From NCBI GenBank assembly GCA_043750125.1, contig JAYVCD010000032.1:1-26326 (forward strand): DNA of 26,326 nucleotides. Reading direction: 5' to 3'. The notes beneath the pieces are model-generated. The model did not search any database. It was given only the letters and a program-made list of their open reading frames with translations, and was not told the origin of the DNA. Every line of letters begins with the position of its first letter. Within the stretch, counting starts at the first letter, position 1. The translations under genes were made by a program, and so were the position numbers. The stretch comes from Archangiaceae bacterium. Lineage in GTDB: Bacteria; Myxococcota; Myxococcia; Myxococcales; Myxococcaceae. This document shows positions 11,265 through 25,518 of the stretch, one piece after another.

Positions 11265-11900
11265 ATGACGACCCCTCTCCTCGACGCGCTCTTCACCACG
11301 CATGACGCAGCACGGATTCTCGGAATCCACCCCTTCACCGTCGGCAGGTGGATCGACCTCGGGCTGCTCAAAGCCCACCGCACCGCCGGAGGTCACCGAC
11401 GCGTTCGCGGCCCCGACCTGCGCCGCTATCTGCTCGAGCACGACATGCCCGTGCCCCAGGATCTCGCCAATTCCGGAGGCACCCGGCTCAAGCTGCTGAT
11501 CGTCGACGATGAGCAACTGATGCTCAACGCGCTGAAACGCTCGTTCCGCCCGTTGGCCTCGGAAGTCGAGCTCACCGTCACCACCTCGGCCGTCGACGCG
11601 TTGCTGCTGCTCGCCGACATTCGCCCCGACGGAATGCTGATCGACATCAACATGCCCGATCTCGATGGCTTCGAAGTCTGTCGCCGGGTGCGCGCCTTCA
11701 AACCTCTTCAAGACGTGAAGCTGGTGGTGATGACCGCCCTCTACCGATCCGACATCGTCGGCAGTGCACTTCGTGCCGGAGCCGTCGCCTGTCTCGCCAA
11801 GCCCATCGACGTGAAGGAAGTCCTCGTGCTGATCGGTGGCGCCCAGCCTGCCGTCATTGGCGCACCGAAGACTGCCCGGCGCGGCCGCACCAGCCCCTGA
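11265..11900 (+). CDS. Response regulator with N-terminal excisionase/MerR-like HTH (HTH_17) and C-terminal receiver domain
   Basis: FTTHDAARILGIHPFTVGRWIDLGLLKAHRTAGGHRRV HTH; receiver residues IVDDE, IDINMP (phospho-Asp), VMTA and AKP are intact. Confidence 0.9.
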   Translation: MTTPLLDALFTTHDAARILGIHPFTVGRWIDLGLLKAHRTAGGHRRVRGPDLRRYLLEHDMPVPQDLANSGGTRLKLLIVDDEQLMLNALKRSFRPLASEVELTVTTSAVDALLLLADIRPDGMLIDINMPDLDGFEVCRRVRAFKPLQDVKLVVMTALYRSDIVGSALRAGAVACLAKPIDVKEVLVLIGGAQPAVIGAPKTARRGRTSP

Positions 11901-11901
11901 G

Positions 11902-12280
11902 TTACGAGCAGCCCGCGTCGAAATTGCTCGTCGGCCTCGGGCTGAACACCGCGCTGCCTCCAACACTGCAGCCGTTGACCGCGTTGATTCGCACCCGGCC
12001 CACGCCCGCGCCGCCGCCGCCTACTCCCGCCGGGTTCAACGAATGATTGTTTCCGGCAGTCGCGGCCACACTTCCCGTCGCGCGATTGGCTCCGCGGCCT
12101 CCCGCATTGAGGCTCGTGCCTCCCGTTGCGGCTTCGTCCTTTCGAACGTTCCCGCTCGATCCGTTCTGACCTCCGAAGAAGAGATCCGAGCCTTCTCCCC
12201 CAGAGCCCCCGTTGGCGGTGACCGCTCCGGTCGGGCCGACAATCACGAACAGCCCTTCGAGCAACACCCCTCCGCCTTCC
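11902..12280 (-). pseudogene. C-terminal remnant of a glycine-rich exported protein
   Basis: GGGVLLEG...VTANGGSGGEG...GGGGAGVGRVRIN...FSP..CS-stop, a typical Gly-rich C-terminus, with no plausible N-terminus or start of its own. Confidence 0.6.
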
Positions 12281-12635
12281 CCCCATGGGGACCTTCGAGC
12301 ACCCACGCCGTCCACAGCGTCCCGTCCGAATCGAACAGCCCGCGATTCGAGAAGTGCTGATTCGGCACGCTTCGGATTTTCAGCGCACCCAGGTTCAACG
12401 ACTGCCCCCAGTCGAGTTCGTGCACCTGGGTCAACCCCTGGCTCAGCAGGTACTCGCGCACCCCCAGGCCATAGAAAATTTACAGGTGGGGAAATTCGAC
12501 CTGCAGCCGCTTGAGGGTGTCGACATTGAGGTGGTCGTAGTGGTTGTGGCTGATCATTACCGCGTGAATCGGAGGAAGGTCTTCGAACTTGATCCCCGGC
12601 GGACGAACCCGATGCGGGCCGACGAACGTGGACGC
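12281..12635 (-). pseudogene. Internal fragment of an MBL-fold metallohydrolase (NAPE-PLD/RomA-like) with an in-frame stop
   Basis: FVGPHRVRPPGIKFEDLPPIHAVMISHNHYDHL...FPHL*IFYGLG...ELDWGQ...VPNQHFSNRGLFDSDGTLWTAWVL. HxHxDH motif present, TAA at 12480-12482, N- and C-termini missing. Confidence 0.85.
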
Positions 12636-12721
12636 GGGCAGGGGCCGGGCTTTTCCGGACTGGCACTTCGCCCCGCAATCGATCGTCGGGGCCCTTGCGC
12701 TCTGCGTTATGGTGCGCGCGC

Positions 12722-14284
12722 GTGACAGCGATCGCCAGCCACCCGGTGGGCGCCTTGCCTGCTCCTTCTCGGCAAGCGCTCGCGGTCGAGACCGAGCTCA
12801 AGACCTTGCTGGGCGGCCGCGTCTCGCACACCGATCAAGATCGCCTCAGCTACGCGCGCGACATGTGGCCGCTGGCACTGCTGTGGGTCCGGGCGGGGCG
12901 CACCCCGGCTCCTCCCGATTTGATCTGTTGGCCGAAGTCGGAAGCCGAAATCATCAGCGTCATTGCGCTGGGCCGCAAAGAGCGTCTGGCCCTCATTCCC
13001 TACGGAGCCGGCAGCGGGGTGTGTGGCGGCATCTGGGCCCTGCATGGGGGCATCACCCTCGATCTCAAGCGCCTGGATACCATCGGCGAAGTCGACGAGC
13101 GCCACCACACCGTCGACGTAGGCGCCGGAGTCATGGGCGAAACGCTCGAGCGGCGGCTCAACTCCCGGGGCTGGACCCTGGGCCATTTCCCCTCGTCCAT
13201 CTACATGTCCACCGTCGGCGGGTGGCTCGCGGCCCGCAGCGCCGGCCAGCTGTCGAGCAAGTACGGAAAAATCGAAGACATGGTGGCCTCGGTCACTTTC
13301 ATCACCGGCACCGGCGAGAAAATCGTCACCCCCGAACGGCCCTTCAGCGGCCCCGACCTGGCCCAGGTGCTGATCGGGTCGGAAGGGACCCTGGGGATCT
13401 TCACCTCGGCCCGGCTGCGCGTCTTTCCCCTCGCCACCGGGAAGGTGTTTCACGGCTTCGAATTCAAGAGCGTCCCCGACGGGCTCGAGGCGATTCGACA
13501 GATCTTCCGCGCCGGCCTTCGACCCGCGGTGGTGCGCCTTTATGATCCGTTCGACACCGCGATGGTCGGAAAGGGCAAACCCGCGACCGTCAAGGCCGAG
13601 CCCAGCGCGATTCGACGGCACCTCATCCCCGCCTTGCTTCGGGTCGTCGCGCCGCAAACCCTGGGGCGCCCGCAGATCTTCAACTCTGCCACCCGGCTGT
13701 TCGCCAAGAGCCGACTGATCTTGATGTTCGAAGGCGACGCGGCCCGGTGCGAAGAGGAAGACCGCGCCGCCCGCGCACTCTGCGCCGGGCTCGGGGCCAC
13801 GGATCTCGGCGAAGAGCCCGGCAAGCACTGGTACGCCAAGCGGTACGACGTGTCGTATCGAATGTCGAAGGTGATCGACGCCGGTGCGTTCGCCGACACG
13901 ATGGAAGTCGCGACCACCTGGGACAAGGTCTACCCGGTCTACGAGAAGGTCCGCGCCGCCGCGAGCCCCCACGCGTTCGTCCTCTGTCACTTTTCCCACG
14001 CGTACCTCGAAGGCTGCTCGCTCTACTTTTCGTTCGTCGGCTCGGCCGGCTCGCAAAGCCAGCTGCTCGAGAAGTACGACGCCCTATGGAGAGACGCGCT
14101 CTCGGCCGCAACCAGCGCCGGAGCCAACGTCAGTCACCACCACGGAATCGGGATCTTCAAGGCCCGCGCCCTTCAGGATTCTCTGAACGAGGGGCGGACT
14201 CTGCTCGCCGCGCTCAAGCGCCACTTCGACCCCGACGGGGTGATGAACCCCGGCAAGCTCGGCCTGAACGGAATGGCGACCTGA
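12722..14284 (+). CDS. FAD-binding oxidoreductase, alkyl-dihydroxyacetonephosphate synthase (ADPS/AGPS)-like (about 520 aa)
   Basis: PYGAGSGVCGG, GHFPSSIYMSTVGGWLAARSAGQLSSKYGKIEDM, IGSEGTLG, CHFSHAY and C-terminal SHHHGIG...MNPGKL. The HHH motif is typical of the ADPS branch rather than the GlcD EHG motif. GTG start at 12722 is inferred. Confidence 0.85.
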   Translation: MTAIASHPVGALPAPSRQALAVETELKTLLGGRVSHTDQDRLSYARDMWPLALLWVRAGRTPAPPDLICWPKSEAEIISVIALGRKERLALIPYGAGSGVCGGIWALHGGITLDLKRLDTIGEVDERHHTVDVGAGVMGETLERRLNSRGWTLGHFPSSIYMSTVGGWLAARSAGQLSSKYGKIEDMVASVTFITGTGEKIVTPERPFSGPDLAQVLIGSEGTLGIFTSARLRVFPLATGKVFHGFEFKSVPDGLEAIRQIFRAGLRPAVVRLYDPFDTAMVGKGKPATVKAEPSAIRRHLIPALLRVVAPQTLGRPQIFNSATRLFAKSRLILMFEGDAARCEEEDRAARALCAGLGATDLGEEPGKHWYAKRYDVSYRMSKVIDAGAFADTMEVATTWDKVYPVYEKVRAAASPHAFVLCHFSHAYLEGCSLYFSFVGSAGSQSQLLEKYDALWRDALSAATSAGANVSHHHGIGIFKARALQDSLNEGRTLLAALKRHFDPDGVMNPGKLGLNGMAT

Positions 14285-15294
14285 CCCCCGCGCTCGACAC
14301 CGCCCTGGGCGCCCTCGCCGTGCCTGGCCCCGCGGGGCCGACGCTCGTCCCGTCTTCCACCCGGCAGCTCACCGAGGCGCTGCAAATCCTCGCCTCTCAG
14401 GGGGCGTCCCTCAACAAGCACGTCCACCTCTCGCTCGGCGAGCTGAAGCAGGTGACGAAGATTTTGCCCCGCGCAGGAACAGTCGAGGTCGGCGGCGGTC
14501 TGGTGCTGGCCGCGCTCGACGCCGCGCTCGCCGCCCACCAGCTGACCCTCGGGCCGCTGTCCCCGCGCGCCCGGGCACTGACCCTCGCCGAGTTCCTCGA
14601 AGGCCCCGATGCCGGGCTGCGCGCGATTCCCGGCGGAGGTCGGCTCGAGCCAATGTGCCTTGCGATCACCGTCGTGCTGGCCGACGGCCGCGTCTACCGA
14701 TCTCACCCCAGCCCCCGAAGCGCCGCGGGCCCGGACCTCGTGGCGTTGATGCTCGGGGGCCAGCGCCGCCTGGGCGTGATTACCGAGGCGGTGGTGCGCT
14801 GCTTCCCGTTTGCTCCCGCCCGCCGCAACCAGGCGTTCAGCTTTCCTTCGGCCGATGCGTTCGTCTCTGCGCTGATGGCCTGTCTTGCCGACGGGGTGTG
14901 GTTCGAGTCGGTGCGGGTCGAGACCCGGTCTGATCGCGCCCAGGTCGAGCTCAACTGCCTGGGCACCGACGAAGCAGTCGAGCGTGACTTCAACACCATC
15001 GCCCGTCGCGCCTTCGATGTCGGCGGGCGCCCCGCCGGCCGGCTCACCGGGGAATTTCCCTTAGCCGATTCCAAAGGAAACCCGTGGGACGAACAGGAAG
15101 TGACCTGGGACGCGATTCGGATTTCGGTCGCCGCGTCCTCGCCGCTCGAGCTGCATCGCCTTTCGCTCGCGAGCGTGATCGCGCGCGGTGACATTGCGGG
15201 CTTGTCGCTCAGCCGCCCGGGGACCTGGAACGCTGCGTCGACTGCGCTCGCTGCTGCGATCGACCCCCACCGGGTCCTGGGAGGCCCTCCATGA
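14281..15294 (+). CDS. Degenerate FAD-binding oxidoreductase subunit (GlcE-like); start uncertain (CTG 14281 or GTG 14320)
   Basis: VEVGGGLVLAALDAAL, VVLADGRV...PRSAAGPDLVALMLGGQRRLGVITEA and C-terminal AAIDPHRVL. Stop overlaps the next ATG. Confidence 0.75.
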   Translation: MTPALDTALGALAVPGPAGPTLVPSSTRQLTEALQILASQGASLNKHVHLSLGELKQVTKILPRAGTVEVGGGLVLAALDAALAAHQLTLGPLSPRARALTLAEFLEGPDAGLRAIPGGGRLEPMCLAITVVLADGRVYRSHPSPRSAAGPDLVALMLGGQRRLGVITEAVVRCFPFAPARRNQAFSFPSADAFVSALMACLADGVWFESVRVETRSDRAQVELNCLGTDEAVERDFNTIARRAFDVGGRPAGRLTGEFPLADSKGNPWDEQEVTWDAIRISVAASSPLELHRLSLASVIARGDIAGLSLSRPGTWNAASTALAAAIDPHRVLGGPP

Positions 15295-16376
15295 CAACCC
15301 CGCTCGCAAAACATTCTCACGCGCTGACGATGTGCACCTACTGCCCCAAGGTGTGCCGCTTCTCCTGCCCCGTCTCAGAGGCCACCGCGAACGAGTCTCA
15401 CAGCGCCTGGGGAAAAATGACCACCGCCCACCAGGTCGCCCTCGGTCAACGGCGAATGGACGAGAGCGCCAGCAAGGCGATCCACGCCTGCACCGGGTGC
15501 GGCCGGTGCAAGAGCTTCTGCAAGCACGACAACGAAGTGGGAGACGCGCTGTTCGCCGCCCGTTCCATCGCCCGCGCCGAAGGACTGCAGCCCCAGGGCG
15601 CCGCCACCACCATGGCCACCTTCACCCAGTCCGGAAATCCTTTTGGCCAGTCGCTGGGCGAAGTGGTCGCGCGGTTCAAAGCCCAGACCCCGATGCGCTA
15701 CCCGCTGTTTCCCGGCTGCGGCACCCTGGTCAAGCGCACCGGGCTGATCGACGACGCGCTCACCGTGGCCAATGCCTTCGGCGCTCCGATGGGCGTTTGC
15801 AAGGCCAGCACCCGCTGCTGCGGCTACCCGCTGTACGCCGGGGGAGCCACCTTGCAGTTCGTCGAGCACGCGAAGTCTTTCGCCGCCACCCTCGAGCACT
15901 ACCCCGAGCTGGTGGTGATGGATCCCGGCTGCGCCCACACCCTGGCGGTCGTCTACCCGAAGTTCGAGATCAAGCTCCCCTCGCGCATTCGCACCCTCTA
16001 CGAAGTGCTCGCGGACAACCTTCCCCACGCGCCGATCAAGCCCCCGCTGGACGAGACCGTCGGCTACCACGACGCCTGTCACCTCGGCCGGGGCATGGGC
16101 CAGTACGAACAGCCGCGGGCGCTGCTGTGGCGAGCGGTGAGCCACGTGCTCGAGGCGCCCAGCAGCCGGGCCGAAGGGGGCTGCTCGGGCGGAGGCGGGC
16201 TGTTGCCGCGCACCATGCCTGAAGCCTCGGTCGAGATCGCGCGGCGGCAAGCGCTGGAAGTCTCTTCGGGTGGGCAGAGCGTGGTGACGGCGTGCGCCAC
16301 CTCGAAGCGGATGTTCGAACGGGCAGGCAAAAAAACGGAGGATCTGGTGTCCATCTTGCGGCGGTGGCTTGAATGA
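15291..16376 (+). CDS. (Fe-S)-binding oxidoreductase subunit, GlcF/GlpC/HdrB-like (ferredoxin-type clusters plus CCG domains)
   Basis: CTYCPKVCRFSCP, CTGCGRCKSFC, FPGC, RCCG, YHDACHLGR, GCSGGGG and TACATS. Confidence 0.9.
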   Translation: MTTPLAKHSHALTMCTYCPKVCRFSCPVSEATANESHSAWGKMTTAHQVALGQRRMDESASKAIHACTGCGRCKSFCKHDNEVGDALFAARSIARAEGLQPQGAATTMATFTQSGNPFGQSLGEVVARFKAQTPMRYPLFPGCGTLVKRTGLIDDALTVANAFGAPMGVCKASTRCCGYPLYAGGATLQFVEHAKSFAATLEHYPELVVMDPGCAHTLAVVYPKFEIKLPSRIRTLYEVLADNLPHAPIKPPLDETVGYHDACHLGRGMGQYEQPRALLWRAVSHVLEAPSSRAEGGCSGGGGLLPRTMPEASVEIARRQALEVSSGGQSVVTACATSKRMFERAGKKTEDLVSILRRWLE

Positions 16377-17290
16377 AGACTTTCTTCGTCGTCAATCCGG
16401 CCAGCGCCAACGGCACCACTGGGAAACGGTGGGCCGAGCTGCAGGGAAAGGTGGCGCGCGCGATCCCGGACTTCGATCACGCGTTCACCCAGCGCCCGAT
16501 GCACGCAGTCGAGCTGACGCGGGCGGCGATTCACAAGGGCTACGCGTGCGTGGTCGCCGTCGGTGGGGACGGCACCATCAACGAGGTCACCAACGGGTTT
16601 TTCGAAAACGGAAAGGTGATCAACCCCCAGGCGGCGCTGGGAGTCGTCTCGCGCGGCACCGGCGGCGATTTTCGAAAGACCTTCGGCTGGGACACCGACT
16701 TCGACCTCGCGCTGAAGCGGGTCGCCTCGGGCACCAACATTCCCTTCGATGTGGGCGAGCTCGAGTTCCGCGCCCACGATGGCCAGACCGGGCGCCGCTA
16801 CTTTGCGAACATCTGCAGCTTCGGCGTGTCCGGCGTCGTGGACCAGGAAGTCAACCGCACCAGCAAGCTGCTCGGGGGGAAGCTGTCGTTCATGTTCGCC
16901 TCGGCCAGGGCGATGATGAAGTACGACGATCGCAAGGTGCGCTTTTCCGCTGACGGAGGCCCCGAGGAAGAAGTCCTCGTCACCACCCTCGCGGTCGCCA
17001 ATGGAAAGTACTTCGGAGGGGGAATGAAGGTCGCTCCCGACGCCGAGGTGAACGACGGGCAGTTCGACGTGACCCTCTGGAGCGGCTACGGCCTGATGGA
17101 CTTCGCCCTCAAGCAGTCGAGCATCTACAGCGGTGAGCACGTCAACTGGGCCGGCACCCGCCGCCTGCGATGCAAGACCTTTACCGCCCAAAGCGCGCAG
17201 GAAGTGCTGATCGACTGCGACGGGGAACAGCCTGGAAAGCTGCCCTGCACGATGACGATTCTGCCCGCGGCAATTCAGCTGAGGACCTGA
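16373..17290 (+). CDS. Diacylglycerol/lipid kinase family protein (YegS/Rv2252/BmrU)
   Basis: VVNPASANG, VGGDGTINEV, RGTGGDF, ANGKYFGGGMKVAPDAEVNDGQFDV and DGE. Confidence 0.93.
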   Translation: MKTFFVVNPASANGTTGKRWAELQGKVARAIPDFDHAFTQRPMHAVELTRAAIHKGYACVVAVGGDGTINEVTNGFFENGKVINPQAALGVVSRGTGGDFRKTFGWDTDFDLALKRVASGTNIPFDVGELEFRAHDGQTGRRYFANICSFGVSGVVDQEVNRTSKLLGGKLSFMFASARAMMKYDDRKVRFSADGGPEEEVLVTTLAVANGKYFGGGMKVAPDAEVNDGQFDVTLWSGYGLMDFALKQSSIYSGEHVNWAGTRRLRCKTFTAQSAQEVLIDCDGEQPGKLPCTMTILPAAIQLRT

Positions 17291-17712
17291 TGGAACCGCC
17301 GTGGCCGATCACTTTGACGGTGCAGGTGGCGTGGGGCGAGATGGATGCCTTTGGTCACGTCAACAACACCGTCTACCTGCGGTGGTTCGAGTCGGCGCGA
17401 ATCATGTATTTCGAAAAGCTCGGCGTCGCGACCACGCTCGATTCCGGCTCTGAGGCCTGGCCGCTGCTCGCGCACTCGTCCATCGATTATCGGGCGAAGG
17501 TCGTCTACCCGGACACGGTCGACATCTCGGCCCGCGTCACCCATCTGGGAAATACCTCGTTCGAGATGTCCTACCGCGCCTCGTCCACCCGGCAGCAGAA
17601 GCTCGTCGCCGAGGGAAAGGCCGTGGTGGTGATGGTCGACCCGAAGGCGGGAACCAAGGTGCTCTTGAATCCAGAGCTCCGCTCGAGAATCTCCACCTTC
17701 GAGCGGCTCTGA
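17290..17712 (+). CDS. Acyl-CoA thioesterase, 4HBT/FadM hot-dog family (140 aa)
   Basis: TGATG overlap and GAGGA RBS; VAWGEMDAFGHVNNTVYLRWFESAR. Confidence 0.92.
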   Translation: MEPPWPITLTVQVAWGEMDAFGHVNNTVYLRWFESARIMYFEKLGVATTLDSGSEAWPLLAHSSIDYRAKVVYPDTVDISARVTHLGNTSFEMSYRASSTRQQKLVAEGKAVVVMVDPKAGTKVLLNPELRSRISTFERL

Positions 17713-17719
17713 GCTCTGC

Positions 17720-18340
17720 TCAGCCCTTGATCATCATCACCGCCACCACCCAGCTCACCACCGCCAGCCCGTAGAGGCCGACCGCCGCGAGGATCTTCAG
17801 CGGCTTTGATTCGGTCCGCCTCGCGATGGCCACTGCCCCCGCGCCCGCTGCTGCCCCGAGCAGGCCGAGCAAGGCTCCTCCCAGCACGGCCAACACCACG
17901 GTGGGCGCGAAGTAGGCCATCGCCGCCGCGTTCTTTGCCGCTTCCTGGCCCAGCCGATCGCTGCAGCCTTTGCAGTGGGTCAAGTCTGCCCCCGCGCATT
18001 GAGGACAGGCAAAGGCGCCGCAGCGGGCGCACGCGAACCGCGCCGCTGCGCTGTGGACCGCGCAGAGGCTGCCCACCACCGCCGGCGCCGGTACAACGTG
18101 CTTCGCCGAGAGCGGAATCTTCTCGCCGCGTTCGTTGAACAGGTCCGTCTTCGGACCCATGAAGCCTTTGGTCCGTTTGAGCTCAAAGGGTGCTCCGCCA
18201 ATCGACAGCGGCCACTGGCCCTTTCCCGACAACTTCTGCTCATGCACCGACGCGCCGTTCTCGAGCACGACGATCTTCCCAGCGGGGAACGCTGCCCCGA
18301 GCTGCACTCTTCTTCCGTCTACCGACCACCCTTGTGCCAT
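17720..18340 (-). CDS. Membrane protein with B-box-like zinc finger and C-terminal transmembrane helices (206 aa)
   Basis: ATG at 18340 after GAAGGGGG; CAVH...CARCGAFACPQC...CKGC; hydrophobic C-terminal segments. Confidence 0.75.
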   Translation of the reverse strand: MAQGWSVDGRRVQLGAAFPAGKIVVLENGASVHEQKLSGKGQWPLSIGGAPFELKRTKGFMGPKTDLFNERGEKIPLSAKHVVPAPAVVGSLCAVHSAAARFACARCGAFACPQCAGADLTHCKGCSDRLGQEAAKNAAAMAYFAPTVVLAVLGGALLGLLGAAAGAGAVAIARRTESKPLKILAAVGLYGLAVVSWVVAVMMIKG

Positions 18341-18454
18341 CGAGCCCCCCTTCACAAAACCTCAGGCGTGCGAAATGGGCCCACCCTATTTCAGCCCTTT
18401 CGAGAATTCGAGGGACAGGCTGCCCTTTCCAACCCGACTGGCCGCCCCCAGGTG

Positions 18455-18536
18455 CAGCGGCGATGTCGGCAGCAATCTCGCAGGTCAGCTCGTCGAGCTC
18501 GATCACGTTCAACCGCAGCCAGTTTGCCGCGAACTG
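18455..18536 (-). pseudogene. Possible short remnant of a VapC/PIN-domain toxin gene
   Basis: Reads QFAANWLRLNVIELDELTCEIAADIA, resembling the central helix-strand-helix of VapC proteins; lacks the N-terminal D-S motif and the downstream TLDALH motif. Confidence 0.4.
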
Positions 18537-21757: not shown

Positions 21758-22425
21758 CGCGGATTCCTTTTACAGCCACTGCAGCTCGGAAGAGAAGCCA
21801 ACTGGGCATAGATGCGACGATCTGCAAAGCGCGGAATTCCCGTCGGGCGGCTCTTCCAGAAATTGATCGCGATCGTCAACCGCAACTTCGGCTCGCGCGG
21901 CAACCTTCGCCCCGGAATCTGGTTGGTTGCGTCCAGCACCCCGTGGGTCAAAGCCCCACCGAACCACACGTAGCGGTTGGGTAGCGGTTGCACCAGATCC
22001 AATGCCAGGTTGTCAGGCGCCATCGCCGCGTTCTCGGGGTTCGGCGCTTCGCGGGTCACGGCGAGCAGCCCCCCCCGACAGCGATTCAAGAACAGCACCG
22101 AAGAAATCGCCGGGTGCACCTGAGGTCCGCCGCTTTGCGCCAGCCGTTCGTCAAGGTCGCGGTGGAAGTCGACCTGCACGTTGGAAGTCCGCATTCGCGA
22201 CAGCCACCATTCGACGCCCGCAAAATTTCCCGGAGCCCTCGCGCGCAGCTGCTCGATCGCCTCTTCGACCACGTTCGATGGCGCGGACTCGCACCCGAAC
22301 CAGAATGTCGTCTGGTAGGTGCGCCGCAGCCGTTGCTCACCCAGCGCCTCGACCGCTCTTTTCAGCCGACGGAACAGCGGCCCGGGCAGCGCGTCGTCCG
22401 ACAGCCGCACCAACCCGCGGGTCAC
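21754..22425 (-). CDS. 2OG-Fe(II) oxygenase-like protein (223 aa)
   Basis: DFHRD (HxD), SSVLFLN...GGLL, PLPNRYVWFGGALTHGV (distal His) and RLTIAINFW (2OG-binding Arg); GTGA overlap. Confidence 0.75.
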   Translation of the reverse strand: MTRGLVRLSDDALPGPLFRRLKRAVEALGEQRLRRTYQTTFWFGCESAPSNVVEEAIEQLRARAPGNFAGVEWWLSRMRTSNVQVDFHRDLDERLAQSGGPQVHPAISSVLFLNRCRGGLLAVTREAPNPENAAMAPDNLALDLVQPLPNRYVWFGGALTHGVLDATNQIPGRRLPREPKLRLTIAINFWKSRPTGIPRFADRRIYAQLASLPSCSGCKRNPR

Positions 22426-24071
22426 TTCGGGGAAATCGAAATCGCCAGGTCGCGCACTTCACCTTCGGCCTGGGCAGGCGGCAGCATTTCCATCAGCGCC
22501 GACACCGTGGGAGCCACGTCGACCACCCGGATTTGATGGGGGTAGTAGCCCGGCTTCACCCCCCGCCCCAGCAGCAGCAGCGGCACCATCACGTCGTACG
22601 AGTAGGGCGAGCCGTGCGAGGCCCCGGCCACCTCGACCTCGCTCACCCTTCCTTGCTTCAGCAGCATCAGCACGTCTCCGCTGCGGTCGGGGTGAAAGCC
22701 GGCCCGCAGGTACGGCAGCCACCCCGGCGACGCGTCGGCTCCGAACAGATCTTCGCGCGCCACCGCCAGCGCTACGTCCGGCTGGCGGGCCAGCCACGCC
22801 GCGGTAAATCGGCGAACCACCGCCAGGTCGAGCTTCTTGTCCGCGATCGCCTTCTGGTCCAGGTACACGTCGGCCTCTTCGATCGCGCTCACCAGGCGGC
22901 CGGCGTTGAACTTCGTCCCGAGCTCTTTTTCGAGCGCCTTCTCGAGCGTGGTCGGGTTGAAGCGCACGGCGTCGAGGCCCAGGGCGGCCCACTGCTCGGG
23001 GATGTTCGCTCCGCCGTGGTCGGCCGAGAGCACCACCAACAGGTTGGCCCTTCCGCCTGCCGCTTTCTCGGCAAACGCAATCAGCTCGCCGATCGCGCGG
23101 TCCAGCCGCAGCACGTGGTCCTGCGCTTCCCACGAGTACGGGCCGAACAGGTGGTAGGTGCGGTCGAACGCAGAGAGGCTGACCGAGAGCAAATCGGGAA
23201 TGTCGTCTTTCCCCAGCGCCTCCCCGTCGATCGCCGCCTTGGCAAAGCCCACCATCACTTCGTTGAACATCGGCGAGGTTGCGAGCGCCGAGTACGACTG
23301 GGGGCCGGGCTGGGCCAGACCTCCATTGAGCGGGTGGGGAAATTTCTTGCCCAGCCCGTACGCGTCGCTTTCCCCGGCTCGGTCGTCCTCGCCGATGTAC
23401 TGAGCGACCGGCTCGAGCAGGCTCCACTCTTTGCCGAAGTAGGCGTCGGGCAGCTTCTTGTCGTTGAAGGTCTTCACCCAGGCCGGAAATTCCTTCCGGT
23501 AGTAGGTGCCGGTGACGAACTTGCCGACCTCTTCGGAAAACCACCACGCCTCACCGAGCTTGCCGCCCATCGCGATGGCCGACCGGGCCTTGCCGCTGAT
23601 CGAGACCGACTTCCCGCGCGACTGGGTCGATTGGCGCAAGCGGTCCGACAGCGTCTCGGCCAGCAGGTTCAAAGGCGAGACATCGTCCTGGCTCAGCGGG
23701 GCTTCGAGCACCGGGTGATTGGGGTCGGCGAAGATCCTTTCCAGCTTCCCGGTGGCGCGGTTGAGCACCCGGTTCGACGCAATTCCGTGGCGCGCGGGGT
23801 TGGTCCCGGTGGCGAGCGTTGCGTGACCTGCCGCCGTCACGGTCTCGGCATAGTCGTACCGCGCGGTGGGAAAGCTCGCCCCGTCCCGGACCAGCGTCAA
23901 CAGGCCCGCCTTGAACTTCGGGCGGCTGCGCAGGAACACGTCCGAGCCGAACGCATCGACGGTGATGAACAGCGTCAGCTTCGGAGCCTTGGCCGACGCA
24001 GAGCCTGCGCCTCCCAACACCGACACCACCATCAACGCCCGCAAGGTGGCCCAGCGACGCAAGAAATTCAT
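22422..24071 (-). CDS. Alkaline phosphatase superfamily protein (PafA-like / nucleotide pyrophosphatase), secreted, 549 aa
   Basis: Signal peptide; ITVDAF, ETVTAAGHATLATG (Thr nucleophile), SGKARSAI, DRTYHLFGP, SADHG and SHGSPYSYD. Confidence 0.92.
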   Translation of the reverse strand: MNFLRRWATLRALMVVSVLGGAGSASAKAPKLTLFITVDAFGSDVFLRSRPKFKAGLLTLVRDGASFPTARYDYAETVTAAGHATLATGTNPARHGIASNRVLNRATGKLERIFADPNHPVLEAPLSQDDVSPLNLLAETLSDRLRQSTQSRGKSVSISGKARSAIAMGGKLGEAWWFSEEVGKFVTGTYYRKEFPAWVKTFNDKKLPDAYFGKEWSLLEPVAQYIGEDDRAGESDAYGLGKKFPHPLNGGLAQPGPQSYSALATSPMFNEVMVGFAKAAIDGEALGKDDIPDLLSVSLSAFDRTYHLFGPYSWEAQDHVLRLDRAIGELIAFAEKAAGGRANLLVVLSADHGGANIPEQWAALGLDAVRFNPTTLEKALEKELGTKFNAGRLVSAIEEADVYLDQKAIADKKLDLAVVRRFTAAWLARQPDVALAVAREDLFGADASPGWLPYLRAGFHPDRSGDVLMLLKQGRVSEVEVAGASHGSPYSYDVMVPLLLLGRGVKPGYYPHQIRVVDVAPTVSALMEMLPPAQAEGEVRDLAISISPK

Positions 24072-24137
24072 GCGCGCACTGTGCTGAGAAAGGGGCGGGG
24101 CGGACAGCGAAAAGTGTGTTACTCGCTGCAAGCAACC

Positions 24138-24533
24138 ATGGCGGTCGAAGCGCGCTTGAGGGTGATTTACGGCGACACCGATCAAATGGGAGTCGTCTAC
24201 TACGCCAACTATTTTCGCTACTTCGAGTTCGCGCGCGGCGAGTACTTTCGGGCCCGGGGGGGCTCGTACGTGGACGTAGAGAAAGGAGGGCACCGCCTGC
24301 CGGTCTACGAGGCTTCGTGCAGCTACCGCGCCCCGGCCCGCTACGATGACCTGCTGGTCGTCAAGGTCAACCTCGGCGAGGTGCGCCGGGCCTCGCTGGT
24401 CTTTGAATACGAAGTTCGCAAAGAAGGTGACGACGCGATTCTCGTTACCGGCCAGACTTCCCACGCGTGCATCAACTTCGAAGGACGCCCGACCGCATTG
24501 CCTGAACAGGTCGTCCGCTTGCTGAAACCTTAA
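24138..24533 (+). CDS. YbgC/FadM-family acyl-CoA thioesterase (131 aa)
   Basis: RVIYGDTDQMGVVYYANYFRYFEFAR...YRAPARYDD. Confidence 0.93.
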   Translation: MAVEARLRVIYGDTDQMGVVYYANYFRYFEFARGEYFRARGGSYVDVEKGGHRLPVYEASCSYRAPARYDDLLVVKVNLGEVRRASLVFEYEVRKEGDDAILVTGQTSHACINFEGRPTALPEQVVRLLKP

Positions 24534-24552
24534 CTGCCAAAGGAAACCCCGA

Positions 24553-25518
24553 ATGGATCGCAACCTTGCTCTGGAAGTCGTTCGCGTCACCGAGATGGCC
24601 GCCATCGCGTCCGCGCGCTTGATGGGCCGGGGAAACAAGGACGAATCGGACCAGATGGCCGTCGATGCGATGCGCAAAGCGTTCGACGCGCTGCAGATCG
24701 ACGGGACGGTGGTGATCGGCGAAGGCGAGCGCGACGAAGCGCCGATGCTCTACATCGGGGAGCGGGTGGGAAAGATGGGCCCGGGGACCACGCCGGTCGA
24801 CATCGCCCTGGATCCGCTCGAGGGCACCAACCTCTGCGCGTTCGGCCGGCCCGGCGCGATCTCGGTCATCGCGATCGGGGCCCGGGGGATGCTGCTCAAC
24901 GCCCCCGACACCTACATGCAGAAGATTGCCGTCGGCCCCTCGGCCCGCGGGGCGATCGATCTGTCGAAGTCACCCACCGAGAACCTGCAGAACATTGCCA
25001 GGGCGAAGAAGCGCGAAGTCGAGGACCTGACGGTGATGATCCTCGACCGCGAACGCCACCTCGAGCTGATCAAGGAAGTGCGCGAGGCGGGCGCGCGGGT
25101 TCGGCTGATCGAAGACGGAGACGTGGCCGGGGCCGTCGCCACCTGCTTCGAAGAGACCGGCGTCGACGTGTTGATTGGCACCGGCGGGGCCCCCGAGGGG
25201 GTGATCGCCGCGGCCGCGGTGCGCTGCGTCGGAGGCGAGATGCAGGGGAAGCTCAAGCCCCGCAACAATCAGGAAATCGCGCGCGCCGCGAAGATGGGCA
25301 TTACGGACATGAACAAGATCTACACCGCCGAAGAGCTGGCCCGGGGCGAAGTGATGTTCGCCGCCACCGGCGTGACCAGCGGCGATTTTCTCAAGGGCGT
25401 CCGCTTCTTCGGCGGCGGCTGCGAGACCCACTCGGTGGTGATGCGCAGCAAGACCGGCACGGTGCGCTACATCACGTCTACCCACCGGTTCGACAAGAAG
25501 CCCGGCTACGTTCTGTAA
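24553..25518 (+). CDS. glpX: Class II fructose-1,6-bisphosphatase
   Basis: MDRNLALEVVRVTEMAA, VVIGEGERDEAPMLYIGE, DPLEGT, GGAPEGV and FAATGVT; AAGGA RBS. Confidence 0.98.
   Translation: MDRNLALEVVRVTEMAAIASARLMGRGNKDESDQMAVDAMRKAFDALQIDGTVVIGEGERDEAPMLYIGERVGKMGPGTTPVDIALDPLEGTNLCAFGRPGAISVIAIGARGMLLNAPDTYMQKIAVGPSARGAIDLSKSPTENLQNIARAKKREVEDLTVMILDRERHLELIKEVREAGARVRLIEDGDVAGAVATCFEETGVDVLIGTGGAPEGVIAAAAVRCVGGEMQGKLKPRNNQEIARAAKMGITDMNKIYTAEELARGEVMFAATGVTSGDFLKGVRFFGGGCETHSVVMRSKTGTVRYITSTHRFDKKPGYVL

Follow-up and report, generated by a model that had tools for sequence, protein, structure and literature searches.

Alkyl-dihydroxyacetone-phosphate synthase (ADPS or AGPS, EC 2.5.1.26) is the textbook flavoenzyme without net redox chemistry: it exchanges an acyl for an alkyl group on dihydroxyacetone phosphate (DHAP). 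Why should a protein of this type be encoded in one operon with an iron-sulfur (Fe-S) electron-transfer protein and a lipid kinase? The question is raised by five genes, here called g1 to g5, at positions 12722-17712 of a 26,326-nucleotide stretch of DNA from an Archangiaceae bacterium (assembly GCA_043750125.1, contig JAYVCD010000032.1, abbreviated C32). The whole stretch is referred to as the window. The preferred answer, which is given just under an even chance of being right, is a flavo-iron-sulfur dehydrogenase built from the products of g1, g2 and g3: its active site would be of the ADPS type, and it would act on a glycerol-phosphate lipid made by the kinase in the course of glycerolipid turnover.

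The earlier note on this DNA described five co-oriented genes joined by overlapping stop and start codons, and all of this can be read directly from the plus strand. g1 (12722-14284, +) starts with GTG and encodes a 520-residue ADPS/AGPS-like flavoprotein of the flavin adenine dinucleotide (FAD) type, the presumed catalytic subunit; a TTG at 12695 is an alternative in-frame start. g2 (14281-15294, +; 324-337 residues) encodes a degenerate paralogue of the flavoprotein in the position that GlcE occupies in glcDEF operons, and g3 (15291-16376, +; 361 residues) an Fe-S/CCG electron-transfer subunit. They are followed by g4 (16373-17290, +; 305 residues), a lipid kinase of the YegS/Rv2252/BmrU family, and g5 (17290-17712, +; 140 residues), a thioesterase of the hot-dog fold (4HBT_2, YbgC/FadM-like). 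The g1/g2 junction is CTGA (14281-14284), in which CTG at 14281 overlaps TGA at 14282-14284. Both the g2/g3 and g3/g4 junctions are ATGA: at 15291-15294, ATG 15291 overlaps TGA 15292-15294, and at 16373-16376, ATG 16373 overlaps TGA 16374-16376. The g4/g5 junction is TGATG (17288-17292), where TGA 17288-17290 overlaps ATG 17290. The start of g2 is the sole uncertain point of the gene calls. Because related loci (L002, L008, L014 and L020; loci carry L numbers throughout) have a Met exactly where the window has CTG, g2 starts either at this rare CTG at 14281 or at an in-frame GTG at 14320. The G+C content of third codon positions (GC3) is 0.83-0.86 across all five genes, as expected for real genes of this genome.

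The flavoprotein and its iron-sulfur partner

The g1 protein comprises a FAD_binding_4 (PF01565) and a FAD-oxidase_C (PF02913) domain, the two-domain families of the VAO/PCMH flavoproteins in Pfam. The SHHHGIG and CHFSHAY motifs reported by the earlier note are present as VSHHHGIG at residues 470-477 and CHFSHAY at residues 422-428; an HHH loop beside the flavin is what we take to be a defining feature of ADPS. The closest solved relatives are the ADPS entries 2uuu (E 8.7e-59, g1 residues 52-513) and 4bby (E 5.1e-53, residues 39-508), whereas the glycolate oxidase/D-lactate dehydrogenase entry 9qgz matches only the N-terminal half of g1 (E 1.8e-32). The match to guinea-pig AGPS scores 184 bits. 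Arg272 of g1 aligns with Arg419 of the guinea-pig and Arg352 of the Dictyostelium enzyme, Tyr435 with Tyr578 and Tyr508, respectively, and His472-474 with the HHH of both. These residues are invariant in all 36 members of a family alignment that spans bacteria and archaea. Arg352 and Tyr508 are reported to be important for ADPS catalysis, the tyrosine being the proposed base (PMC3509576), and the titles of the mutant entries 4bc7 and 4bca in the Protein Data Bank (PDB) name Arg419His and Tyr578Phe.

The same Arg/Tyr/HHH set is found in E. coli YgcU and in a second ADPS-like paralogue of this genome. It is missing from E. coli GlcD, which has 'GEHGIG' in place of HHHGIG, lacks the ADPS Arg and Tyr and aligns with g1 in two short pieces at 25% identity. 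The top NCBIfam match of g1 is nevertheless TIGR00387 (glcD), where g1 scores 145 bits and stays short of the cut-off of 568. The full-length ADPS match, the conserved Arg, Tyr and HHH and the poor alignment to GlcD place g1 on the ADPS branch and not with GlcD or the lactate dehydrogenases, as had been proposed.

The g3 protein contains Fer4_8 and CCG domains in Pfam, with two Cys4 ferredoxin motifs and two CCG-type cysteine-rich domains, and is thus recognizable as a CCG-type Fe-S subunit of the GlpC/GlcF/TfrB/HdrD kind. Among 33 relatives, cysteines 15, 18, 22, 26, 67, 70 and 77 are invariant and cysteines 143, 176, 177, 214, 263, 298 and 335 nearly so. No NCBIfam cut-off is reached; there are sub-threshold matches to TfrB, GlpC (63 bits against a cut-off of 278) and LdhH. 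The g2 protein matches FAD_binding_4 weakly (4.6e-8), and it lacks the PYGAGSG loop for the FAD pyrophosphate, which GlcE retains, and probably does not bind FAD. Its AlphaFold2 model (pLDDT 86) is nearest in fold to the ADPS entries 2uuv and 2uuu (TMq 0.70) and also resembles D-lactate dehydrogenase. The description of g2 and g3 as GlcE- and GlcF-like holds at the level of domains and fails as a statement of orthology: g2 is 30% identical to E. coli GlcE over 61 residues (BLASTP E 3e-4), g3 matches GlcF at E 0.009, and neither reaches the cut-off of a GlcE or GlcF model. One homologue of g1, P0039 (853 residues), is fused to a g2-like part, which spans residues 536-853 and shares 44% identity with g2. 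By size alone, four more of the g1 homologues, with 844-871 residues, are candidate fusions.

The three redox proteins together have 1218 residues, and their assembly into a complex, for which the earlier note had suggested a multimer prediction, was examined for the g1-g3 pair, each protein with its own alignment, in three runs and with three controls. The pair is predicted to bind: ipSAE is 0.91 in each of the three runs, compared to 0.00 for the best control. In benchmarking, 58 of 80 solved complexes attained this mark, as did 2 of 110 mismatched pairs. At least 94% of the contacts are shared between the runs, and the pLDDT of the partners is at least 91. In the predicted interface, segment 13-63 of g3, with the first Cys4 motif in it, lies on the FAD domain of g1, and g3 residues 13-25, which hold the first cluster, would face the FAD loop of g1 (96-98). 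A solved homologue in which the two parts are fused exists (9ojn), and the result may partly reflect likeness to it, or memory of it, and is to that extent not independent evidence. With this proviso, the model supports binding between the flavoprotein and the Fe-S protein.

The enzymes encoded by the last two genes point to lipids. The g4 protein (DAGK_cat and YegS_C domains) passes the cut-off of TIGR00147, with 145.3 bits against 118.65, and its closest solved relatives are the diacylglycerol kinases 4wrr, 3s40 and DgkB 2qv7 (E about 7e-19). The g5 protein matches 4HBT_2 at 1.6e-22 and stays under the cut-off of TIGR00051 (YbgC/FadM; 53.1 bits against 68.7); the thioesterases 5byu and 5dio are among its solved relatives.

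The module in near and distant relatives

Loci related to g1 numbered 78, and neighbours were counted in the 65 whose sequence runs on for 3 kb or more past the g1 homologue on its downstream side. An Fe-S/CCG gene stands beside the g1 homologue in 51/65, a g2-like degenerate flavoprotein gene in 37/65, a lipid kinase in 36/65, always together with the Fe-S gene, and a thioesterase in 10/65. The pairing of an ADPS-type flavoprotein with an Fe-S/CCG protein thus extends far beyond the window's own clade. The earlier note had made conserved kinase and thioesterase neighbours a part of its case; the kinase proves to be widely linked, whereas linkage with a thioesterase does not extend beyond a narrow clade.

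The g1 family is spread over many bacterial phyla and over Asgard and Thermoplasmatota archaea. Its tree was obtained by a quick maximum-likelihood search and not by a finished, careful one, and its long branches (GlcD, YgcU and the second paralogue of this genome) are unreliable. Three groups can be distinguished. A 24-row clade includes the window, and its rows with enough flanking sequence carry g2 and the Fe-S gene. A 37-row clade covers many phyla and has mostly the Fe-S gene or the Fe-S gene plus kinase. A 13-row clade of Polyangia has neither as neighbours. The Polyangia homologues in L028, L032, L046, L061, L071, L072 and L076 have about 110-175 extra residues beyond FAD-oxidase_C, and their loci likewise lack an Fe-S or kinase neighbour; in the four copies scanned (L028, L046, L061 and L071) the extension has no Pfam match.

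Another family of the same order keeps the order g1-g2-g3-g4 at about 50% identity (L103, L104 and L106). Open frames of 1022-1185 residues in that family gave the appearance of a triple g1-g2-g3 fusion; tblastn shows four separate genes in different frames, and the long frames are therefore an artefact of high G+C content. Matches to g1 at E up to 1e-40 occur in 67 of 151 sampled genomes of the order. In the window's own family, orthologues of at least 60% identity were seen in only three other genera; this is a genome sample and not a proof of absence. In one genus of the family, with genomes of 9-10 Mb, the only matches are 27-29% identical; their open frames have about 640-730 residues and are presumed to encode the canonical AGPS. 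Another genus has no g1 match in 14 genomes, again a sample that does not prove absence.

In distant loci, genes of glycerol-phosphate metabolism adjoin the module. By tblastn, 18 of the 78 loci have GlpA- or DAO-type genes and a further 2 have only GlpB (20/78). A Pfam scan covered 131 of 147 neighbouring open reading frames (ORFs), drawn from 19 of the 20 distant loci selected for it. The loci with genes of the glycerol-3-phosphate dehydrogenase type include Asgard archaea, Thermoplasmatota, Bacillota, Bacteroidota and the Myxococcaceae-labelled L018, which lies inside the window's clade. The module directly follows GlpA-GlpB(-GlpC) in L026, L036, L040 (Asgard) and L059. Four loci from Methylocystaceae, Chitinophagales and Syntrophomonadaceae go further, with the Fe-S/CCG protein fused to a BON + DAO + BFD protein of the glycerol-phosphate dehydrogenase type in a chain of 937-940 residues (L035:5095-7908, L039:1790-4612, L055:8379-11195 and, by tblastn only, L070:8406-11228); the fusion gene is followed by genes for Pyr_redox_2, DUF1667 and lipid kinase proteins, all behind a GntR regulator. 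These fusions form a Rosetta-stone link between the module and dehydrogenases of the glycerol-3-phosphate type. The Thermoplasmatota loci L077 and L065 encode the same proteins unfused, L077 with an FGGY kinase in addition. Other neighbours are a GDPD phosphodiesterase with a Na/Pi transporter (L078), GAPDH with PGK (L068) and PAP2 (L059). Small Fer4_8 proteins of about 140-150 residues, which look like a split-off N-terminal half of GlpC, are encoded directly upstream of the g1 homologue in L027 (757-1206), L059 (6570-6986), L068 (3105-3533) and L073 (6426-6884).

Closer to home, the loci related to the window contain a phospholipase. A full-length gene of about 362 codons, encoding a NAPE-PLD-type phospholipase D of the metallo-beta-lactamase fold, lies upstream of and divergent from the g1 homologue in 14/78 loci. 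The closest solved relative of the L004 protein is human NAPE-PLD (4qn9, E 1.2e-59). In the window this divergently oriented gene has decayed to a remnant at 12243..12680 (-), recognized by Lactamase_B_2 and tblastn. Its two fragments, 12480-12680 and 12243-12476, match profile positions 11-54 and 83-133 of Lactamase_B_2, are separated by an in-frame stop (12477-12479) and lack both ends of the gene. With the intact 362-residue L004 protein (L004:5854-6942:-) as query, the remnant covers residues 137-251 at 61% identity. As a result of the decay, no more than about 40 bases separate the remnant from the start of g1. A plus-strand ORF at 12285-12725, whose stop overlaps the g1 start and which is seemingly conserved, was considered as a sixth operon gene and rejected; its GC3 of 0.64 and a six-frame analysis show it to be an antisense shadow of the remnant. 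At 11902-~12300 (-) lies the C-terminal part of a glycine-rich ORF that belongs to no Pfam family. This part has conserved counterparts in 12 related loci (78-154 bits), where a distance of about 2 kb separates it from the NAPE-PLD-type gene.

The genome, a draft of 6.17 Mb in 460 contigs that is 89% complete, offers further lipid genes. A desaturase domain of the CarF/PEDS1 type is encoded at C211:8609-9136 (E 4e-61), with no match in 14 control genomes. Contig C382 encodes a 1477-residue protein with the architecture of ElbD (FAR, AMP-binding, ACP and acyltransferase domains; L102:3180-7613:-), adjoined by an epimerase gene (L102:2110-3183:-). Together these supply the genome with the ether-lipid and plasmalogen genes known from myxobacteria, and the organism therefore probably makes alkyl and vinyl ether lipids. 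The second ADPS-like paralogue, on contig C11 (L080:1204-2835:+), has 543 residues and the HHH motif and scores 232 bits against 2uuu. It adjoins genes for cytochrome c maturation and for a Ser/Thr kinase, and an Fe-S or kinase partner is lacking. Since FAR, GNPAT and epimerase neighbours are missing too, it could not be assigned as the orthologue of MXAN_1676.

The G+C content of the window is 62-69%, and its nearest relatives are metagenome-assembled genomes labelled Archangiaceae, Archangium or Myxococcales. No RNA family was found in 11850-12800 at E up to 1, and a scan of 11800-18500 for promoters and terminators yielded nothing over shuffled expectation. A gene upstream, at 11265-11900 (+), encodes a response regulator whose DNA-binding domain is of the MerR/HTH_17 type; a homologue of it was seen only in L002. 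Downstream are genes for a type I phosphodiesterase and a GlpX-type fructose-1,6-bisphosphatase (22422-24677 (-) and 24553-25518 (+)).

The reaction and its alternatives

The preferred dehydrogenase would work as follows. The g4 kinase would phosphorylate a glycerolipid with a free primary hydroxyl, that is a monoalkyl-, monoacyl- or diacyl-glycerol. The g1-g2-g3 enzyme, soluble or peripheral, would act on the resulting sn-glycerol-3-phosphate lipid at the oxidation level of glycerol phosphate or DHAP. The ferredoxin-like clusters of g3 would carry two electrons onward to an acceptor, quinone or some other; the Fe-S/CCG wiring, unlike anything in a studied AGPS, would let electrons leave or re-enter the flavin. 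The substrate, the direction, the net oxidation and the electron acceptor are the parts of this reading that we infer. An ether lipid is a plausible substrate, because ADPS chemistry takes place at C1 and the organism has ElbD and CarF genes. The pathway would be one of glycerophospholipid or ether-lipid turnover and not of primary ether-lipid synthesis: catabolism or remodelling is favoured because of the phospholipase D in close relatives, the GDPD and GlpABC genes in distant ones, the GntR regulator and the thioesterase.

Several observations weigh against this proposal. The catalytic Arg447 of the Dictyostelium enzyme aligns with Met381 of g1, and neither the column of Met381 nor that of the neighbouring Arg380 is among the invariant or nearly invariant ones. 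At its N-terminus g1 is shorter than the eukaryotic enzymes by about 70 residues or more; the ADPS alignments begin at Dictyostelium residue 125 and guinea-pig residue 180, compared to g1 residues 52 and 39. ADPS has an extra domain of its own, with a gating helix by which the lipid channel is controlled. A transmembrane segment, which might give access to a lipid substrate or to quinone, is absent from all five proteins. The window has no GlpA-type gene beside the operon, the genome's GlpA/GlpD-like gene being on another contig. In archaea (L077) and in Pseudomonas (PMC8151288), a kinase of the FGGY sugar type takes the place of the lipid kinase or accompanies it, which fits a small soluble substrate, and deletion of the Pseudomonas operon is described as having no phenotype on glycerol, on Biolog plates, in motility or in biofilm formation (PMC8151288). 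The Fe-S subunit could serve only to keep the flavin oxidised, because canonical ADPS needs no net redox. Finally, the whole neighbourhood in the window's clade, from aspS to an SNF2 helicase, is syntenic, so that close relatives give little independent support, and the weight of the linkage rests on the distant loci and on the other family of the order.

The first of the alternatives, which is considered rather unlikely, concerns the substrate. It could be a small soluble phosphorylated polyol or ketol, such as an isomer of glycerol phosphate or a modified glycerol phosphate, and the kinase of the DAGK family would then phosphorylate a soluble glycerol derivative. The glycerol-type operons in which the module occurs with GlpABC or with DAO/Pyr_redox_2/DUF1667 dehydrogenases would suit such a substrate, as would the FGGY kinase of L077, the GAPDH and PGK of L068 and the lack of membrane segments in all five proteins; the type of kinase also appears to be interchangeable between lineages (PMC8151288). 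The neighbours in the window's clade, however, are enzymes of lipids, namely the TIGR00147 kinase that exceeds its cut-off, an acyl-thioester hydrolase and, in relatives, the NAPE-PLD-type phospholipase D, and the cousin operon of Pseudomonas is reported to be co-regulated with PlcA (PMC8151288).

It is also unlikely, to a similar or slightly greater degree, that g1 makes ether lipids as a genuine alkyl-DHAP synthase, in a redox-neutral reaction. In that case the only task of the Fe-S protein would be to re-oxidise flavin that has become wrongly reduced, as a repair or priming device useful where O2 cannot do so. The invariant Arg, Tyr and HHH of ADPS agree with this, and so do the many carriers that are anaerobes or archaea and the ElbD-architecture and CarF/PEDS1 homologues that make the organism a probable ether-lipid maker. 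ADPS is known to need oxidised flavin, and an oxygen-stable reduced species forms with acyl-DHAP (PMC3509576). On the other hand, no FAR or GNPAT gene is linked to g1, unlike the arrangement of MXAN_1676-1675 (PMC9131029), the gene context is catabolic (GntR regulator, GlpABC, GDPD), and the archaeal carriers build their ether lipids by another route. The shortened ADPS-specific N-terminal region and the non-conserved equivalent of Arg447 argue in the same direction.

A two-step enzyme, also judged unlikely, would combine both kinds of chemistry. The flavin would take a hydride from C2 of 1-O-alkyl- (or acyl-) sn-glycerol-3-phosphate supplied by the kinase and pass the electrons to the Fe-S protein. 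Once re-oxidised, it would carry out covalent chemistry of the ADPS type at C1 of the newly formed alkyl-DHAP, with the fatty alcohol either expelled or swapped for a fatty acid supplied by the thioesterase. If true, this would be the first cleavage or remodelling of alkyl ether glycerolipids that is independent of oxygen and pterin, and it would explain why the module is found beside glycerol-3-phosphate dehydrogenase genes in anaerobes and archaea. In animals, cleavage of alkyl ether lipids is reported for a single enzyme, AGMO, which depends on oxygen and pterin.

More doubtful still, and improbable on balance, is a role of the module as an alternative or accessory glycerol-3-phosphate dehydrogenase, in which g1 and g2 would pass electrons of glycerol 3-phosphate to a GlpC-like subunit or would dock on GlpAB. 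GlpA and GlpB are encoded directly upstream in L018, L026, L029, L036, L040, L042, L047, L050, L059 and L069, the only GlpC-like match of L018 is its g3 homologue, small Fer4_8 proteins precede g1 in L027, L059, L068 and L073, and g3 itself matches GlpC models weakly. Many loci, however, for example L026 and L040, hold a complete GlpABC as well as the module with its own Fe-S protein, which argues for a second, different step. The ADPS-type site is, moreover, made for reactions at C1 of a DHAP group (PMC3509576).

An ordinary GlcDEF-type dehydrogenase of 2-hydroxyacids (glycolate or D-lactate) is nearly excluded: the three-gene architecture mirrors glcDEF and glcD is the top, though far sub-threshold, NCBIfam match of g1, but GlcD aligns only in two short pieces at 25% identity against a full-length match to ADPS, HHHG replaces the 'GEHG' of GlcD, the ADPS Arg and Tyr are present, and g2 and g3 can barely be aligned to GlcE and GlcF.

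Comparison with known systems

In literature searches and in the main texts of the papers cited, no description of a module composed of an ADPS-like protein, an Fe-S protein and a kinase was found; the AGPS datasets of PMC13012113 may list members.

AGPS itself resembles g1 in full-length homology, in the VAO/PCMH families and in the conserved catalytic Arg, Tyr base and HHH. It differs from g1 in that here an Fe-S/CCG partner and a degenerate second subunit are present, the N-terminus is shorter and Dictyostelium Arg447 aligns with Met. AGPS acts in concert with FAR and GNPAT. MXAN_1676, reportedly about 42% identical to human AGPS (PMC9131029), shares its operon with genes for an epimerase and a FAR-GNPAT fusion (PMC9131029, PMC13012113). 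Unlike the MXAN_1676-1675-1674 operon, neither the window nor the 19 distant loci scanned contain a FAR or GNPAT gene; g1, with its different gene context, is distinct from the canonical AGPS of myxobacteria. The main route to myxobacterial ether lipids, which depends on ElbD, is itself described as biochemically unresolved (PMC9131029). The ElbD-like and CarF/PEDS1-like genes of this genome make the link to ether-lipid turnover testable in myxobacteria.

By annotation, the module can be likened to the P. aeruginosa operon PA3026-PA3025-PA3024(-PA3023) (PMC8151288). The AGPS step is there tentatively assigned to an oxidase that uses FAD, and the other products are a homologue of GlpD, a kinase and a lipid kinase of the YegS type (PMC8151288). 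That operon belongs to the regulon of GliR (PA3027), is tied to the turnover of phospholipids by its co-activation with the phospholipase C PlcA and is described as having no assigned function (PMC8151288). It differs from the module in the added FGGY kinase, and the study describes no Fe-S/CCG protein, second flavoprotein-like subunit or thioesterase (PMC8151288).

Mycobacteria have a related cluster, in which Rv2251 is presumably an ADPS-like protein. The earlier note had named Rv2251 and Rv2252 as adjacent, and a published table bears this out, with glpD1 beside them (PMC4564863). In BCG, glpD1 (Rv2249c), the regulator Rv2250c, the flavoprotein Rv2251 and the diacylglycerol kinase Rv2252 lie side by side and are co-induced (PMC4564863; PMC6689984). 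The cluster differs from the present one in that no Fe-S/CCG gene is listed in the table (PMC4564863).

GlcDEF has the same three-part layout of a catalytic FAD subunit, a second FAD-fold subunit and an Fe-S/CCG protein; here, however, the catalytic subunit is of the ADPS type, and g2 lacks the loop for the FAD pyrophosphate that GlcE has. GlpABC is related through g3, which shares the Fer4 + 2xCCG architecture of GlpC, and through the GlpAB(C) genes that adjoin the module in many lineages. The predicted partner of g3, however, is the ADPS-like protein and not GlpA or GlpB.

The last system is that of E. coli YgcU, for which no literature on the protein itself was found among the matches listed for ygcU. 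YgcU is ADPS-like and has the same Arg, Tyr and HHH. Its gene adjoins those of the putative flavoproteins YgcQ and YgcR, the putative oxidoreductase YgcN (FAD/NAD(P)-binding), the putative 4Fe-4S protein YgcO and the kinase YgcE; the redox proteins among them are presumably ETF-like and ETF-QO-like. It differs from g1 in that the two are only 28% identical, the putative electron route is not of the CCG type, and YgcE is a sugar kinase. A branch of AGPS-like proteins that has kept the catalytic residues and is tied to an Fe-S subunit and a kinase points to a putative further reaction of glycerolipid or glycerol-phosphate metabolism, and the surroundings of YgcU suggest that the branch is generally linked to redox chemistry.

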